In this document: positions 31,980-48,700 of the stretch, one piece after another
How positions within the stretch are numbered: position 1 is the first letter of the stretch
Layout of the letters: every line of letters begins with the position of its first letter
Assembly (NCBI GenBank): GCA_019056785.1
Contig: DXJV01000029.1
Location: forward strand, 59,615-123,614
Direction: 5' to 3'
DNA length: 64,000 nucleotides
Source: Candidatus Heimdallarchaeota archaeon
GTDB lineage: Archaea; Asgardarchaeota; Heimdallarchaeia; JABLTI01
Notes under the pieces: model-generated
What the model saw: only the letters and a program-made list of their open reading frames with translations
The model's database searches: none
What the model was told of the DNA's origin: nothing
Position numbers and translations under genes: made by a program

Positions 31980-33428
31980 ATGAGTCAACATGGAACCAGT
32001 AATCTAAATCCGAAACAACTCGAAAAATTAGCCGAAAAAGCAAAAGAACTAGGATATGACAATCTGAGGTTTTTTGTCGATGATATTGACATGTTGTTGC
32101 GCCCGGCTGTTCTTTTGAAACAAAAAGATATGAAATATTTCGAGTTGGAAAACCTCATTTCCTTGCTAACGAGTAAAAATATTAGCCTGGGAATGGCGCC
32201 CCGGATGTTAAGTATGGTATCAAAATACGCTGAAAGAAATGAAGAATTAGAAGCAGAAAACGCAGAATTAAAGCAATCAAATATAACTATGCGAAGTAAA
32301 TACCAAACTGCTGAAGCCCAGGTAAAAGAATATCAAAAGCAACTTAAAGAACTCTCTGTTGGCGTCCAAGCTGATGCTAAAATCCGAGAAGAGAATATAA
32401 AACTTAGTGAAGAGAATAAGTATCTAAAAATCACAAATGAATCTCTCACCGGAGAACTAAAGAAAACCAAAGAAAAACTCGACGAGAAAATTGAAGAAGC
32501 AAATGATCTTGAAGTTGAAAATAGCCAGTTAGAATTAAAGATTAAAGACCTCCAGAGAGAATTGAAAGAATTGGAGTTGGAATATGAAGAACTAAAACGA
32601 GAAGGTATTGGTACCGATAAGACAAAACGACTCGTTGAGGACTTAATTGATGAAGTAGATGAAGCCTATAGTACTGTAGACGACCCCTTTAAGAAGGAAT
32701 TCTTGGCATTTATGGGTGTGGAATTGAGCGAAATCGTTGAGGGACGAACTATTACAAAACAAAAAATTCTCAATCAAATAGCGATTCATGCACACGAAAT
32801 TGAAAAAAAATTCGAGCCAAAAATAGCAGCTTTGCAACAAATGCCTGCCCGCAGTGCTACACCTCAACCGGTAATCAAAGAACCAAGAGAGGTTATGAAG
32901 AAAGAAGTTATTCCTGAACCCGTGAAAAAAACCGCTCCAGTTGCAGTTAAAAAAGGACAACCTGCTGAAGCGCCTTCAAAACAAAAGGCCAAGGAAGAAA
33001 CCGAAGACCATTATGTGAAACCAAGTGAATTCTTGAAGAAAAAAGGCATCATCGTAAGTAGTGGAAAAGAACCTGCAAAAACAGAAGAAGCGAAAGAAAA
33101 AGGTGAAGAACACGCAGAAAAAACACCTGCAAAACCCGCTACCACTGTTTCACGTTCCAAACGTAAATTTAAGAAGAAAGTGGAAATCGACCGCACACCA
33201 AGCCCTGAATTGATTCAGGTCTTTGACGTATTTATAAAATATCTTGAAGCTATAACTGACAATAAATCATTTAATGACCTGTGCGACAAAATAATCGAGC
33301 AACTTTATGAACACATTGGCTCTCCCGGCATGACACAAGTTTACAAAATAAAAAGTAGTGGCGTGAAAAGAAAACAATTATTGATCGACCTAATAAAACA
33401 GTGGAAAGTGAGACTGCCTGACCTCTAA
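31980..33428 (+). CDS. Long coiled-coil protein with a K/E/P-rich linker and a small C-terminal globular domain
   Basis: 482 aa. Residues ~95-230 are heptad-rich (ELEAENAELKQ...LELKIKDLQRELKELELEYEELKRE). Low-complexity P/K/E linker. C-terminal ~90 aa helical domain. Confidence 0.6.
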   Translation: MSQHGTSNLNPKQLEKLAEKAKELGYDNLRFFVDDIDMLLRPAVLLKQKDMKYFELENLISLLTSKNISLGMAPRMLSMVSKYAERNEELEAENAELKQSNITMRSKYQTAEAQVKEYQKQLKELSVGVQADAKIREENIKLSEENKYLKITNESLTGELKKTKEKLDEKIEEANDLEVENSQLELKIKDLQRELKELELEYEELKREGIGTDKTKRLVEDLIDEVDEAYSTVDDPFKKEFLAFMGVELSEIVEGRTITKQKILNQIAIHAHEIEKKFEPKIAALQQMPARSATPQPVIKEPREVMKKEVIPEPVKKTAPVAVKKGQPAEAPSKQKAKEETEDHYVKPSEFLKKKGIIVSSGKEPAKTEEAKEKGEEHAEKTPAKPATTVSRSKRKFKKKVEIDRTPSPELIQVFDVFIKYLEAITDNKSFNDLCDKIIEQLYEHIGSPGMTQVYKIKSSGVKRKQLLIDLIKQWKVRLPDL

Positions 33429-33475: not shown

Positions 33476-34123
33476 TTATAAGATAATCTGGATTTTCTGA
33501 TGGATCGCGTAAGAAGACATACCACCTGAATCGAAGCGAAGACGAATCAATTTAGACTTGTCTTGTCCGTGAATAGCAATGACTTTTCCGGTGACCTTAG
33601 TCTCACTTTCAGGATATTTTAAAATGAATTTTTTACCTATCAATGTCTTATGGTTATAGTCATCCAAAACTCTTGCAATTGCTTGATTGGTTTTTTGAAG
33701 CCTTTTGTCTCGTCGATAGCTAGTTATAATTGCGCTAATAAATTTGACTTTCTTTGATTTTGGTTTAGTGGTTGGCTTGGGTTTGGTTGTAGTGGAGGTC
33801 TTTGACTTTGTGCGTGTGCTTTTCTTTGTAGCGGTTGTTTTTACTTTTGGGGTGGTCTTTTTAGCCGTCGTTGGTTTTTTAGCTGCAGTGGTCTTTTTAG
33901 TTGTAGCCGGTTTTTTTGTTGTAGAAGTCTTTTTGGCTGGTGAAGTGCTCTTTTTAGTGGTAGTGGCTTTTTTTGTCGTTGTGGAAGTTTTAGTGGAAGA
34001 TTTTTTCGCGGGTGTTTTTTTAGTGGAGGTTTGTTTTGTAGATGCTTTTTTGGTTGTGGTTGTTTTAGCAGCAGGTTTCTTTGCAGAGGTGCTTTTTGAA
34101 GTGGTTTTTTTCTTTTCTGGCAT
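33476..34123 (-). CDS. rpl35ae: Ribosomal protein L35Ae with a ~125-aa N-terminal Lys/Thr/Ala-rich low-complexity extension
   Basis: The C-terminal 90 aa (IITSYRRDKRLQKTNQAIARV...GKVIAIHGQDKSKLIRLRFDSGGMSSYAIHQKIQIIL) align with archaeal and eukaryotic L35Ae (SYRR, GK(I/V)xxxHG, RxRFxxxxPxxAIGxxIxV). The N-terminal part is (T/S/A)KK(P/T) hexapeptide-like repeats. Confidence 0.75.
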   Translation of the reverse strand: MPEKKKTTSKSTSAKKPAAKTTTTKKASTKQTSTKKTPAKKSSTKTSTTTKKATTTKKSTSPAKKTSTTKKPATTKKTTAAKKPTTAKKTTPKVKTTATKKSTRTKSKTSTTTKPKPTTKPKSKKVKFISAIITSYRRDKRLQKTNQAIARVLDDYNHKTLIGKKFILKYPESETKVTGKVIAIHGQDKSKLIRLRFDSGGMSSYAIHQKIQIIL

Positions 34124-34201
34124 AACAAATCACTCTAAGTTATTATTCGATAGGTAGAGGACAAAAGATGTCATTCAAAAATCTTTTCTCTGTGATTAAT
34201 T

Positions 34202-35605
34202 TTATTTTGCTATTTTCTTGTCCTCTACTGCAAGAAGGACACTCTCCAGCGAAATTAGAAAGTTCTCTATCTCACTTTTTTCAACAGTAATCAGTCGCCC
34301 GGGTTGATGAACGAGAATATTCCGTTTTTTCCGGACATTATTAATAGCTTCCTCTTGTTCTTTAGTTAAGAGGTCACGCTCGCGTAAGAATTGCAAGATC
34401 ATATTAAAATTGGTATAAATCTCCACAGGAGCACCGAAGCGTTCTATAAGGCTTTTGAATAATTGCTCTGCAGAACGGAAAAGAAAAACCAAAGCGGTAG
34501 CACGTTCTTCCTCTGAAATTTCGTCCCAATGTTTAAGACGGTTTTTGACATACTCAATATCCGTCTTTAAGGAAACGACCTCATGTTCGTAACTGAATAC
34601 ATGCCGAGCAATATCATAAAACGGGCTTTCAAAGAACCGGTCCTTTATTACGGCAGTTTGTTTTGCCGAAACTTTTAATTGGTCCAAAATCGGCTTGTAA
34701 ATGCGCCATGCTTGTTGTTTCGCAACAAAATTGTTGGCGTAATTTCTCAGCGCCTCTGATAAAGGTTCCTCGTATTCTTGCTGATAGATAGGATCAATCC
34801 GACGAGCGAAACGTCTGAGAGTGGTCTCTCCAACTAACCCTTCTATTGGGAATTGGCTAACAGCACGAATGTAGTTGTTTCTATTCAGCCGTTCTTCTTC
34901 ATTTGGCGGCATAACTATAGGCAATGTCTCAAGGATCAGTTTTCTTAATCTACCGATAGAATAGAAAGCAAGAAGGTCGCTGAGAAAAGTAAGAACAGTA
35001 AATAGAATAGTGAAAATGATAACATTCACAATATTATCAATTTTATCAAGAACTAAAAAGTCTAGAACAATTGGCCTGAAATGTAAATAGATAATGCCAA
35101 TCAAATCTGCCAAAGATAAAATGGACCAAATAATTGAAAAGAGAAACAAAGTCTCAAAACTACTTAAGAGGTTATTTTTTCTATTAACCTGGCTTTGGCT
35201 AATATATGAATCAATATATAGCTCACGCACACGGGCCACAAGCGGGGGAACAAGCTCCTTTTCAATGGCAGCACGAATCTTTTCTTTTTGGGTTCTTGTA
35301 AGGCTTGCTTCATCATCTGAGAAGATAAAAAGCTCGTCGATATTTTCTTTTAATTTTGACTCGTAATGTTTTCCAACGCCACTAATAAAGTAGATTAACA
35401 TTGGAGAAATCATGTAGATAAAAAGTGCAGGTGCAATCAACATTAAAGCCCAGAGAATAAAGCCCCAGTTGGGGGTTATTCCTTTTGCCAGAAGATAAAT
35501 AGCATAGACAATAAATTCCAGCACAATAGGAGCGTAGACTCCAAGAAGAAAGCGTTGATTGAATAAAGCATTGGTTATTTTCGACCGCCAGTTATTGGTT
35601 CCCAT
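34202..35605 (-). CDS. 4-TM membrane protein with C-terminal HEPN-like domain (Rx4H motif; DUF4145-like)
   Basis: 467 aa. Two TM hairpins (residues ~20-75 and ~150-215). The C-terminal helical domain contains NNVRKKRNILVHQPG, which matches R-x4-6-H of HEPN RNase-like domains. Confidence 0.5.
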   Translation of the reverse strand: MGTNNWRSKITNALFNQRFLLGVYAPIVLEFIVYAIYLLAKGITPNWGFILWALMLIAPALFIYMISPMLIYFISGVGKHYESKLKENIDELFIFSDDEASLTRTQKEKIRAAIEKELVPPLVARVRELYIDSYISQSQVNRKNNLLSSFETLFLFSIIWSILSLADLIGIIYLHFRPIVLDFLVLDKIDNIVNVIIFTILFTVLTFLSDLLAFYSIGRLRKLILETLPIVMPPNEEERLNRNNYIRAVSQFPIEGLVGETTLRRFARRIDPIYQQEYEEPLSEALRNYANNFVAKQQAWRIYKPILDQLKVSAKQTAVIKDRFFESPFYDIARHVFSYEHEVVSLKTDIEYVKNRLKHWDEISEEERATALVFLFRSAEQLFKSLIERFGAPVEIYTNFNMILQFLRERDLLTKEQEEAINNVRKKRNILVHQPGRLITVEKSEIENFLISLESVLLAVEDKKIAK

Positions 35606-37254: not shown

Positions 37255-38448
37255 GTGTGTTTAAAGTTGTCGAATTCGTCGTTGTATCAATATGCCTCTA
37301 AATATGCACAAAAAGCCTATGAACAAGATAAAGCTGGAAATTACAAAGCAGCACATCAAAATTATTTGAAAGCTGCAGAAGTGTTGCAACAGCTCATCCA
37401 ATTCACAAGCAATCCCCAATTAAAAAACATGTACTATGTTAAAGCAAAAGAATATCTTGCTCGCGCAAAGGAGCTAAAAGATATGGGAATGCAACCGGTA
37501 GAAGGGGGGAGACGGAGAAGCTCAAGAAAGGGCAGCCGGGGAGGTGACAGTGGAGGGGATGAAGAAGAGGATGAACTTGAAGAGGCTATCTCGGAAATTA
37601 TCATCGTGGAAAAACCCAACGTGAAAATGAGCCAGGTGGCAGGATTAGAAGAAGCAAAGAGAGCCTTGCGAGAAGCAATCATCCTACCAATGAAACGACC
37701 CGACCTTTTTAAAGGCGCTCGAAACCCATGGCGAGGCATCTTACTTTTTGGCCCACCAGGTACCGGGAAAACATTATTAGCAAGAGCAGTTGCAACAGAA
37801 GTAGATGCAACCTTTTTTAACGTGAGTGCCTCAAGTATTATCTCGAAATGGCTGGGAGAATCGGAGAAACTGGTTCAACAGCTGTTTGAAACAGCCCAGG
37901 AAAAACAACCCTCGCTCATTTTCATAGATGAAGTAGATAGCATTGCTTCTGCAAGAGGTGGAAGCGAACATGATGCAATGCGCCGTGTGAAAACAACTTT
38001 GATGACCCAGATGGACGGAGTAACAACAAAGAAATCAGACCGGATTGTAGTTATAGGTGCAACTAACCTCCCATGGGAACTCGACCCGGCCTTTCGAAGC
38101 AGATTTGAAAAGCGCATCTATATTAATTTGCCTGATTTTCCTGCACGAGCGAAAATTTTTGAAATCCACACAAAAGGAGTAGAAATCGACCAGACAGTCG
38201 ATTGGAACCTCCTTGCTGAGGTAAGCGAGGGCTATTCAGGAAGAGACATTCAGCTGCTCTGTAGAGAAGCAGTAATGATGCCGGTAAGAGAACTTGATAT
38301 TGCAGGTGCTTTGGACAATCCCGACATTAAAGCCAGGGCAGTAACAATCGACGACTTTATGTTAGCAATGGAGAAAATCAAACCCAGCGTTGCTCCTGAA
38401 GAACTTCTGAAGCACAGAGACTGGGCAGAAGAATTTGGAAGCGTCTAG
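37255..38448 (+). CDS. vps4: Vps4-like AAA+ ATPase (MIT domain + AAA ATPase + Vps4_C); ESCRT/Cdv ATPase
   Basis: 397 aa. N-terminal MIT three-helix bundle (YASKYAQKAYEQDKAGNYKAAHQNYLKAAEVLQQL...YVKAKEYLARAKELK), Walker A GPPGTGKT, Walker B LIFIDEVD, SRF second region of homology, C-terminal Vps4_C helix. Confidence 0.9.
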   Translation: MCLKLSNSSLYQYASKYAQKAYEQDKAGNYKAAHQNYLKAAEVLQQLIQFTSNPQLKNMYYVKAKEYLARAKELKDMGMQPVEGGRRRSSRKGSRGGDSGGDEEEDELEEAISEIIIVEKPNVKMSQVAGLEEAKRALREAIILPMKRPDLFKGARNPWRGILLFGPPGTGKTLLARAVATEVDATFFNVSASSIISKWLGESEKLVQQLFETAQEKQPSLIFIDEVDSIASARGGSEHDAMRRVKTTLMTQMDGVTTKKSDRIVVIGATNLPWELDPAFRSRFEKRIYINLPDFPARAKIFEIHTKGVEIDQTVDWNLLAEVSEGYSGRDIQLLCREAVMMPVRELDIAGALDNPDIKARAVTIDDFMLAMEKIKPSVAPEELLKHRDWAEEFGSV

Positions 38449-38570: not shown

Positions 38571-39407
38571 ATGTCAGTAAAACAAAAGAAGAAGAAAACG
38601 AAAGCAAAAACAAAAAAGAAGACAACGCAAAAAGAGCAGACAGTACAAGAGGAGCAGCCGTTACAACAACAAGAACTGCAAGAAGAGAAAACACAACCTG
38701 CGAAATCCACCTTAGAGAGCAAACCGCCTCGCGAAGCAACTGTAACTATTTCCTTGATAGAAAACCCAGTCACAACAGAAGATAAGATTTACAATGCATT
38801 ATTACGGATAGAGCAGCTAATACAATCAGATGTAGCTATTTCCCGTGAGGATCTTTTTGACTTAGGAGAGGATGTTGAAAGACAGCTTTTGGAAATTCTT
38901 CCGGAATGGATTAATAAACCCTGGATGTATGTCACCCCCGAACACCAGAAACAACTCGATTCCTGGTGTGCAGATTGGTCCAATTTCATTATGGAATATG
39001 CCCGCATTAATATTAAACACATTATTCACATCGAAGAAGAACGAGCGAAATATCCATTCAATAATAAACAAATAAAGAAACGATTAGACAGAAAGCAATT
39101 TCAAACGATAGGTGATTATATAGTCGCCCAGGAGATGGGCATTTGGTGGGATAAGAAAAAAATTCGCCTCCGTCTCTATTGGCGAACATTGGATGAATGG
39201 GCGGACATTATTTATGAGTGGAGTTTGAAAACAGGGCGTGCGGCCGGCCCCGAAAGAGTCATGACTTTGCTAGATATTCAAGAGGCAGGCCAACCATGGA
39301 GCACCATACCGGTCGAGGACCTGAAACGAATTTTTGAGATCATGAAAGAAAAAGGATATATTGAATGGGCTGATAAAAAGAAAACAGCTATTGCTTTTAT
39401 TATCTGA
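38571..39407 (+). CDS. vps25: ESCRT-II subunit Vps25/EAP20 homolog (tandem winged helix) with Lys/Gln/Glu-rich N-terminal extension
   Basis: 278 aa. HQKQLDSWCADW...PFNNKQIKKRL...GIWWDKKKIRLRLYWRTLDEWADIIYEWSLKTG aligns with human Vps25 (RQKQLAAWCSLV...PLFNNVKLQRKL...LEWLDKSKSSFLIMWRRPEEWGKLIYQWVSRSG). The first ~60 aa are a charged low-complexity extension. Confidence 0.8.
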   Translation: MSVKQKKKKTKAKTKKKTTQKEQTVQEEQPLQQQELQEEKTQPAKSTLESKPPREATVTISLIENPVTTEDKIYNALLRIEQLIQSDVAISREDLFDLGEDVERQLLEILPEWINKPWMYVTPEHQKQLDSWCADWSNFIMEYARINIKHIIHIEEERAKYPFNNKQIKKRLDRKQFQTIGDYIVAQEMGIWWDKKKIRLRLYWRTLDEWADIIYEWSLKTGRAAGPERVMTLLDIQEAGQPWSTIPVEDLKRIFEIMKEKGYIEWADKKKTAIAFII

Positions 39408-48594: not shown

Positions 48595-48700
48595 GGGCGT
48601 ATGGCTCAGCCAGGTAGAGCGGAGGACTCTTAAGAGAAAAAGAGGTTCTTCACTCAGAAATATCCTTAAGTCGGGGGTTCGAATCCCCCTACGCCTACCA
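48595..48700 (+). tRNA. tRNA-Lys(CUU) with a 29-nt intron at the canonical 37/38 position; encoded CCA
   Basis: Acceptor GGGCGTA/TACGCCT (G1-U72); D arm GCTC-AGCCAGGTA-GAGC; anticodon stem GAGGA...TCCTT interrupted after the loop CTCTTA by AGAGAAAAAGAGGTTCTTCACTCAGAAAT; intron AAGAG can pair with anticodon-loop CUCUU, as in bulge-helix-bulge substrates; T arm GGGGG-TTCGAAT-CCCCC. Confidence 0.7.

Follow-up and report, generated by a model that had tools for sequence, protein, structure and literature searches.

A Heimdallarchaeia homologue of ribosomal protein eL33 with a long lysine- and threonine-rich N-terminal tail

The 64,000-nucleotide stretch of Candidatus Heimdallarchaeota DNA analyzed here (contig DXJV01000029.1, positions 59,615 to 123,614; hereafter the window) carries a gene for a homologue of the ribosomal protein (r-protein) eL33, also called L35Ae, in which a long tail rich in lysine and threonine precedes the conserved domain. 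The domain is divergent in sequence but complete in its predicted fold, and a tail of the same kind is found in every syntenic orthologue that we recovered. We propose that the gene is the eL33 of one clade of Heimdallarchaeia and that its tail forms a polycationic arm on ribosomal RNA (rRNA) near the eL33 site, around expansion segments ES7 and ES39. We regard this reading as fairly probable. No known archaea are more closely related to eukaryotes than the Heimdallarchaeia, and the ribosomes of this group are notable for expansion segments of eukaryotic size.

A divergent eL33 domain behind a polycationic tail

The original prediction, made from the sequence of the window, described the C-terminal part of the protein as an unambiguous L35Ae. 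This held for fold and homology, whereas sequence scores stayed below the Pfam and NCBIfam thresholds. The Pfam family PF01247 matched residues 128 to 213 across model positions 2 to 94 of 95. The full protein scored 21.8 bits and the isolated domain 25.7 bits, both short of the gathering cut-off of 27; related proteins scored 19 to 26 bits. The NCBIfam equivalog PRK04337 was matched with an E value of 4.4e-8 and 33.1 bits, as opposed to a cut-off of 85. Apart from L35Ae, no Pfam family gave an E value as low as 0.1. The top six sequence matches in the PDB (E ≤ 0.024; best, 9.3e-6) were all eL33/L35A chains. The best of them came from Pyrococcus and Thermococcus (Thermococcales; E of about 1e-5), with residue 129 of the window protein aligned to residue 3 of an 87-amino-acid (aa) protein.

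In an AlphaFold2 model derived from four members of the family, residues 126 to 215 had a predicted local distance difference test (pLDDT) score of 75 to 91 and formed six strands and a short helix. When this model was compared with the PDB by Foldseek, the best 50 matches were all eL33 chains from archaeal and eukaryotic ribosomes. The best E value, 4.5e-6, was that of Pyrococcus furiosus 9qf4_Bc (TMt, 0.75), and TMt to archaeal eL33 was 0.75 to 0.76. Thus, residues 127 to 215 are, by modeled structure and sequence similarity, a divergent but complete eL33 beta-barrel.

The N-terminal stretch of about 125 aa had been described as extremely basic and of low complexity, and it is. Residues 1 to 125 comprise 42 threonines, 41 lysines, 15 serines, 12 alanines and 10 prolines, so that these five residues make up 96% of the tail. 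A single acidic residue is present and the net charge is +41. The tail has a pLDDT below 50 almost throughout, which predicts disorder, and it contains two (S/T)PxK motifs. None of the other open reading frames (ORFs) of the window encodes a further K/T-rich tail. The underlying DNA had been read as a degenerate tandem repeat of about 18 nucleotides (nt). This is correct for the central third of the tail; elsewhere it is not, and the N-terminal part has a period of 15/30 nt. The spacing of KK dipeptides agrees with both periods, being 6 residues over residues 51 to 88 and 10, 10, 10 and 5 residues near the N-terminus.

The nucleotide composition of the tail calls for caution in reading frames from it. 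On its coding strand, A makes up 51% of the bases and T only 10%, and one more sense frame and one antisense frame across the region are nearly or wholly free of stop codons. Since T-poor DNA leaves these two further frames open, frame openness is not evidence of coding. The case for the long ORF instead comes from about 60 orthologues that hold the ATG, the tail and the domain in one frame. Within the window ORF, no in-frame ATG, GTG or TTG occurs between codon 1 and codon 153, which lies 26 residues inside the eL33 domain. A complete domain can therefore be made only together with the tail. Most orthologues likewise lack an internal in-frame start. Accordingly, we read the product as one polypeptide of 215 aa that begins at the only usable start codon, the ATG at 34123. 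Translation from an internal site, supported for instance by an internal promoter, had been named as grounds for abandoning the prediction; along with the missing start codons, we found no TATA-like motif inside the tail. An Rfam scan detected no RNA element at the gene.

Signals upstream of the ATG are conserved as well. A Shine-Dalgarno-like GTGAT occurs in 9/9 aligned orthologue upstream regions, approximately 6 to 10 nt before the ATG, its register shifting by 1 to 2 nt. Across the window, Shine-Dalgarno-like motifs precede about 10 of 44 ORF starts, compared with a background of 3.7%. Farther upstream, GAAAA..TTTT.GA is invariant in all nine regions and has the layout of an archaeal B recognition element (BRE) followed by a TATA box; the block to which it belongs is the sole one of its type near the gene. 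Judged by their consensus, these motifs would act as the promoter and the ribosome-binding site of the long ORF.

Public records present the locus differently. The tailed protein is named "hypothetical protein" at NCBI. In assembly GCA_054388195.1, the annotation consists of a 63-aa fragment called from an internal TTG (L001:6001-6192, plus strand; window 33476-33667, minus strand) and an antisense 137-aa ORF, rich in phenylalanine and valine, laid over the repeat (L001:5511-5924, minus strand; window 33744-34157, plus strand). One could therefore suppose that the long ORF is spurious, being a misassembled repeat or an untranslated low-complexity leader ahead of a short real product, and the open alternative frames of the T-poor repeat would suit that view. 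We consider it largely refuted and very improbable. The intact 215-aa ORF lies on the same GCA_054388195.1 contig as the two annotated products, of which the 63-aa one would lack the domain's first two strands. Moreover, the identical ORF recurs in six other assemblies, and about 60 orthologues, whose tails differ in length, conserve frame, start motif and upstream signals.

Orthologues and a sister family

An identical 215-aa protein was found on contigs of four other assemblies (GCA_003662935.1 and three from ENA) and of GCA_054388195.1 (loci L001 and L004-L007). The five DNA copies are identical to one another, and the window differs from them at two synonymous third-codon positions, both within the tail. 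Some of these assemblies may share reads, so the minimum is two sequence variants of equal tail length. An assembly artefact was rejected on the strength of these copies and of the tail's retention across orthologues. The suggestion that repeat length may vary between strains found no support in the two variants, which encode the same 215-aa product. Length does differ between species.

We recovered about 60 syntenic orthologues with a tail: proteins P0002-P0006, seven loci from GTDB species representatives, and about 50 further clusters at 90% identity. All begin with MS(E/Q/K/R/D)K..KK. K, T, S, A and P make up 81 to 97% of their tails, in which acidic residues are almost absent. The tails are in frame with the domain, and no tail-less member was found among these orthologues. 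The shortest tails measure 11, 14 and 16 aa, most measure 38 to 89 aa, and one reaches about 120 aa (locus L010); the window protein has the longest, giving an overall range of 11 to about 125 aa. By comparison, 0 to 7 residues precede the first strand in the canonical eL33 proteins of that search. In five close orthologues, the alignable part comprises the first 36 codons, and all 14 of its lysine positions are invariant. Of the codons that differ, 33 to 62% are synonymous, and the replacements exchange threonine, serine, alanine and proline. Read from these codons, the pattern indicates purifying selection on tail charge and looser selection elsewhere.

The family is narrow, because a profile search run exhaustively over 1.8 billion representatives returned only 22 proteins at E < 1e-3. 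Such a search, together with a broad alignment, was needed since a single-sequence search with a word index yielded only 4 matches. All named matches of the tailed type but one are labeled Candidatus Heimdallarchaeota or "Asgard group," and no canonical short eL33 labeled Heimdallarchaeota or Asgard occurred among the matches of the broad alignment. The suggestion of a lineage-specific extension, to be looked for in related Asgard genomes, is therefore upheld. The exception is locus L010 on the 172-kb contig DATKZI010000052.1, which is labeled Candidatus Bathyarchaeia yet encodes a Heimdall-type tailed eL33 of 209 aa. It has the same microsynteny, with neighbors approximately 64 to 72% identical. 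Judging from these sequences, its taxonomic label or binning is probably wrong.

In the exhaustive profile search, the closest relatives of the domain were proteins of a different architecture (P0007-P0020), which ranked above all canonical eL33. These are 321 to 605 aa long and consist of one to four N-terminal helix-hairpin-helix (HhH) domains (PF14520), a K/E/P-rich linker and a C-terminal divergent eL33 domain, whose Pfam L35Ae scores are likewise below the cut-off. The linker bears the motifs GIPTKKKRGVQI, GW.V.A.ELS and ITR.IP.PP.PVKAIK. HhH domains usually bind DNA. A profile-profile comparison (hhalign) joined the K/T and HhH families with 98.5% probability and an E value of 1.6e-15, and both have YPD(S/T)E, GKxxSK and, just ahead of the domain, KPR/KPK. 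In the AlphaFold2 model of one HhH-family member, HhH helices form the N-terminal part and the C-terminus is a barrel predicted with confidence; the best PDB matches of this barrel were eL33 (TMt of 0.80 to P. furiosus).

Two of the HhH-eL33 proteins are labeled Heimdallarchaeota, and NCBI names the family "helix-hairpin-helix domain-containing protein" or hypothetical. It is a second, apparently undescribed protein family of Heimdallarchaeota. Its HhH domains and motif-bearing linker occupy the N-terminal site that the low-complexity tail occupies in the K/T family, and its gene neighborhood is a different one. In 2/3 distinct loci examined (L015 and L016), the gene adjoins an Ogt-type DNA_binding_1 gene. 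Among the few locus-tag prefixes and assembly accessions compared, the K/T and HhH forms did not overlap in any genome. Most matches in a search started from the HhH-family domain were fragments at contig edges. In another archaeal locus (L019:5001-5441), a 146-aa protein (P0010) fuses one HhH domain (HHH_5) to a near-canonical L35Ae that, at 37 bits, exceeds the Pfam cut-off; the neighbors there include PCNA, primase, TFS, Trm1 and FtsJ. Because HhH domains sit at the same N-terminus in the sister family and in P0010, the eL33 N-terminus is, by comparison of these sequences, a recurrent site for the addition of nucleic-acid-binding modules.

The strongest rival to a functional tail is that it is largely neutral baggage. 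Replication slippage in an A/C-rich repeat would resize a solvent-exposed N-terminus, and only stop codons, frameshifts and acidic residues would be barred; the protein would still be eL33, with a tail that serves no specific function. Tail lengths that run from 11 to about 125 aa in syntenic orthologues, DNA that forms a degenerate tandem repeat, free interchange of T, S, A and P, and the fact that about half of the differing codons are non-synonymous all fit this explanation. It accords less well with the conservation of the lysine positions and of the first 7 residues, or with the lack of any orthologue wholly without a tail. Nor would it readily account for a K/T/S/A/P content of 81 to 97% with almost no acidic residues maintained over about 60 proteins. 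The structured nucleic-acid-binding domains found at the same site in the sister lineage also argue that something is wanted there. On this evidence we consider neutral baggage unlikely; were it correct, the finding would amount to an annotation fix only.

A proposed role on the large ribosomal subunit

In yeast, eL33 is grouped with eL6, eL14, uL13 and eL20 in the domain II/domain VI cluster; it contacts ES7, domain VI and ES39 and is required early in 60S assembly (PMC9700599). Penev et al. reported an ES39 of 115 to 132 nt in Heimdallarchaeota, compared with 45 nt in P. furiosus, values that describe Heimdallarchaeota generally and may differ in the present clade (PMC7594248). ES39 adjoins ES7, uL13, eL14 and "aL33," which we read as eL33, and in eukaryotes its segments are held by alpha-helical extensions of uL13 and eL14 (PMC7594248).

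Against this background, we envisage that the eL33 domain of the tailed protein docks at the usual eL33 site. The tail would have arisen through in-frame duplication of 15- to 18-nt units, with selection keeping it basic and free of acidic residues. The disordered arm would rest on, or sweep, the rRNA surface around the eL33 site, where it could neutralize backbone charge and help to fold or hold an enlarged ES39/ES7 while the subunit assembles and perhaps also once it is mature. It would then be a prokaryotic counterpart of the eukaryote-specific uL13 and eL14 extensions that hold ES39.

Several points weigh against this proposal. That the protein joins the 50S subunit, that its tail binds RNA and that ES39/ES7 is the target are steps that we infer, and the case for ribosome association itself is indirect. 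The domain falls below every curated sequence cut-off. The gene lies outside any r-protein operon, and an Rfam scan found no rRNA in the 64-kb window. The tenfold variation in tail length suggests weak constraint on any precise contact. Finally, the ES39 lengths on which the proposal draws are those of the phylum at large.

Some of these points would also suit a non-ribosomal paralogue with the eL33 fold that serves as a nucleoid or chromatin protein, or as a general RNA chaperone, with a tail that acts on DNA in the manner of histone H1. The divergence of the domain and the location of the gene outside r-protein operons are compatible with such a history, as are the H1-like composition of the tail and the HhH domains of the sister family with its Ogt-type neighbor. 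In addition, weak compositional matches link the tail to H1-like models. We consider this alternative quite improbable, somewhat more so than neutral baggage. The whole eL33 domain has been kept, including the SYRR...Q.TNQ and HG...R.RF segments, and among the matches no canonical Heimdall-labeled eL33 was found that could fill the ribosomal role. A globular winged-helix domain of linker histones (H1/H5) is also absent; at E ≤ 1, a Pfam scan gave only L35Ae and a spurious channel match. Moonlighting of a tailed eL33 on DNA is possible.

The likeness to a histone H1 tail that had been pointed out for this protein is thus real in composition and fails as homology. The model NF038053 (hist_H1_lk_Burk) scored 17.4 bits against a cut-off of 80 (E value, 0.004), and NF038052 (Hc2) scored 9.5 bits against 135. 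Precomputed PF07382 flags on some orthologues are compositional too. With scores so far below the cut-offs and no globular domain, H1 homology was rejected.

If the tailed protein is the clade's eL33, it has consequences for the r-protein inventory of the phylum. L35Ae is a non-ubiquitous archaeal r-protein with several independent losses (PMC3353972), and a 2023 review listed the distribution of eL33 in Heimdallarchaeota as "unknown" (PMC9932298), an entry that fits a domain scoring below the Pfam cut-off. The gene would supply the missing protein. It also corrects inventories used comparatively: Heimdallarchaeia do have an eL33 homologue, one that standard models miss. In the literature on eL33/L35Ae in Asgard archaea, on HhH domains and on H1-like archaeal extensions, we found no published description of the tailed protein.

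The proposal predicts that the first ribosome structures from Heimdallarchaeia will show extra density running from the eL33 N-terminus along ES39/ES7. More tentatively, the eL33 N-terminus may be a dedicated holder of enlarged ES39/ES7 across Heimdallarchaeia, in the form of a K/T tail of adjustable length in one clade and of HhH arrays in its sister. In that case r-protein extensions would have co-evolved with expansion segments in a prokaryote, independently of the eukaryotic route through eL6 and the extensions of eL14 and uL13; this wider idea we would call conceivable rather than probable.

Genomic setting and comparison with known proteins

The positions of the features are collected in Table 1. 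All K/T-family loci have the same microsynteny, which consists of a MOFRL/DUF4147 gene, a gene for a 467-aa membrane protein, the eL33 gene and a convergent gene for a 482-aa coiled-coil protein, and we therefore treat them as positional orthologues. The 467-aa and 482-aa neighbors are 62 to 72% identical across the clade. In the loci that reach far enough (the window, L001, L002, L004 and L017), a longer block is syntenic, namely, S8 peptidase, ESCRT-II, Vps4, MOFRL, the 467-aa protein, eL33 and the 482-aa protein. Genes for Vps4 and an ESCRT-II subunit are expected in an Asgard genome. Elsewhere in the window, Rfam identified a second transfer RNA (tRNA) of 103 nt at 48595-48697 on the plus strand (57.9 bits). 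It is absent from the ARAGORN output and probably contains an intron.

Table 1. Positions of the tailed eL33 gene, its parts, its neighbors and the HhH-eL33 loci (window coordinates unless a locus is given)
Feature	Position	Strand	Basis or remark
eL33/L35Ae homologue with tail, complete coding sequence	33476..34123	−	215 codons plus TAA stop at 33476..33478, ATG start (ORF list)
N-terminal extension, residues 1-126; predicted disordered polycationic K/T/S/A/P tail	33746..34123	−	Composition, pLDDT, orthologue tails
Degenerate 18-nt (6-codon) tandem repeat within tail	33852..33972		TRF period 18, 6.6 copies, 70% matches
Degenerate 15/30-nt repeat, N-terminal part of tail	33988..34071		TRF periods 15 and 30
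Predicted eL33 (L35Ae) beta-barrel domain, residues 127-215	33479..33745	−	Pfam/NCBIfam matches below cut-off, PDB matches, AlphaFold2 and Foldseek
Shine-Dalgarno-like GAGTGAT	34129..34135	−	6-12 nt ahead of the long-ORF ATG; putative function
Conserved GAAAAGATTTTTGA block, BRE/TATA-like, candidate promoter	34175..34188	−	52-65 nt upstream of the ATG; putative function
467-aa membrane protein	34202-35605	−	Weak C-terminal HEPN-like matches (E ~0.02-0.05); no confident family
482-aa coiled-coil protein with K/E/P-rich linker	31980-33428	+	No confident family
Vps4 (MIT + AAA + Vps4_C)	37255-38448	+	3-5 kb from the eL33 gene
ESCRT-II subunit	38571-39407	+	3-5 kb from the eL33 gene
HhH-eL33 loci (proteins P0007-P0020, P0026)	L015:8001-8966, L016:8001-9818, L020:8001-9290		

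Archaeal eL33 of Pyrococcus and Thermococcus (PDB entries 1SQR, 4V6U, 9QF4 and 6SKG) has the same beta-barrel over the full domain, and the SYRR...Q.TNQ and HG...R.RF segments of the tailed protein align with it. These canonical proteins, of 86 to 95 aa, begin with the first strand itself, whereas the tailed protein, at about 30% identity, has 126 additional N-terminal residues. It also differs in extra residues of the HG loop and in a GMSSYA sequence in place of the canonical LPGQA.

The tail had been thought unlike any eukaryotic L35Ae, which is incorrect. Drosophila melanogaster RpL35A/eL33 (PDB 4V6W chain Cf; 157 aa) has, before its domain, an N-terminal extension of low complexity that is rich in lysine (AKSTTAPKAAKAQKAPKAVKAPKAEK...), and kinetoplastid eL33 chains, at 132 to 144 aa, are also longer than canonical ones. 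Judging from Drosophila and HhH-family eL33 and from the longer kinetoplastid chains, the N-terminus of the protein tolerates extensions. The Drosophila extension is about 50 aa long and K/A/P-rich, while the archaeal tail is K/T-rich; the two are evidently of independent origin.

Tails of a comparable kind occur on other r-proteins. Histone-H1-like extensions are present on fly RpL22 and RpL23a and on mosquito RpL23a and RpS6 (PMC1934995; PMC11764897), and fly L23a with its H1-like extension supports ribosome biogenesis in yeast (PMC1934995). Like the archaeal tail, these insect extensions are lysine-rich, of low complexity, lineage-specific and variable, and they are tolerated in functional ribosomes. 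They differ in being A/P-rich and in belonging to different r-proteins of eukaryotes. The C-terminal domain of histone H1 and the bacterial Hc2 and NF038053 proteins resemble the archaeal tail in their lysine content of about one-third, their disorder and their presumed binding of polyanions. Unlike the alanine- and proline-rich H1 and bacterial H1-like tails, however, the archaeal tail is threonine-rich, and it comes without a globular H1 domain.

We found no archaeal example of an H1-like r-protein tail in the literature searched, and the present protein adds one to a set that so far came from insects. It combines a conserved r-protein domain with a lysine-rich disordered extension that is common to a clade and variable in length, which are the features that define lysine-rich r-protein extensions, a class drawn by analogy and not by descent (PMC1934995; PMC11764897). 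The tailed eL33 of Heimdallarchaeia is thus not a new kind of system; it is an archaeal, threonine-rich instance, of up to 126 aa, of the lysine-rich r-protein extensions already known.

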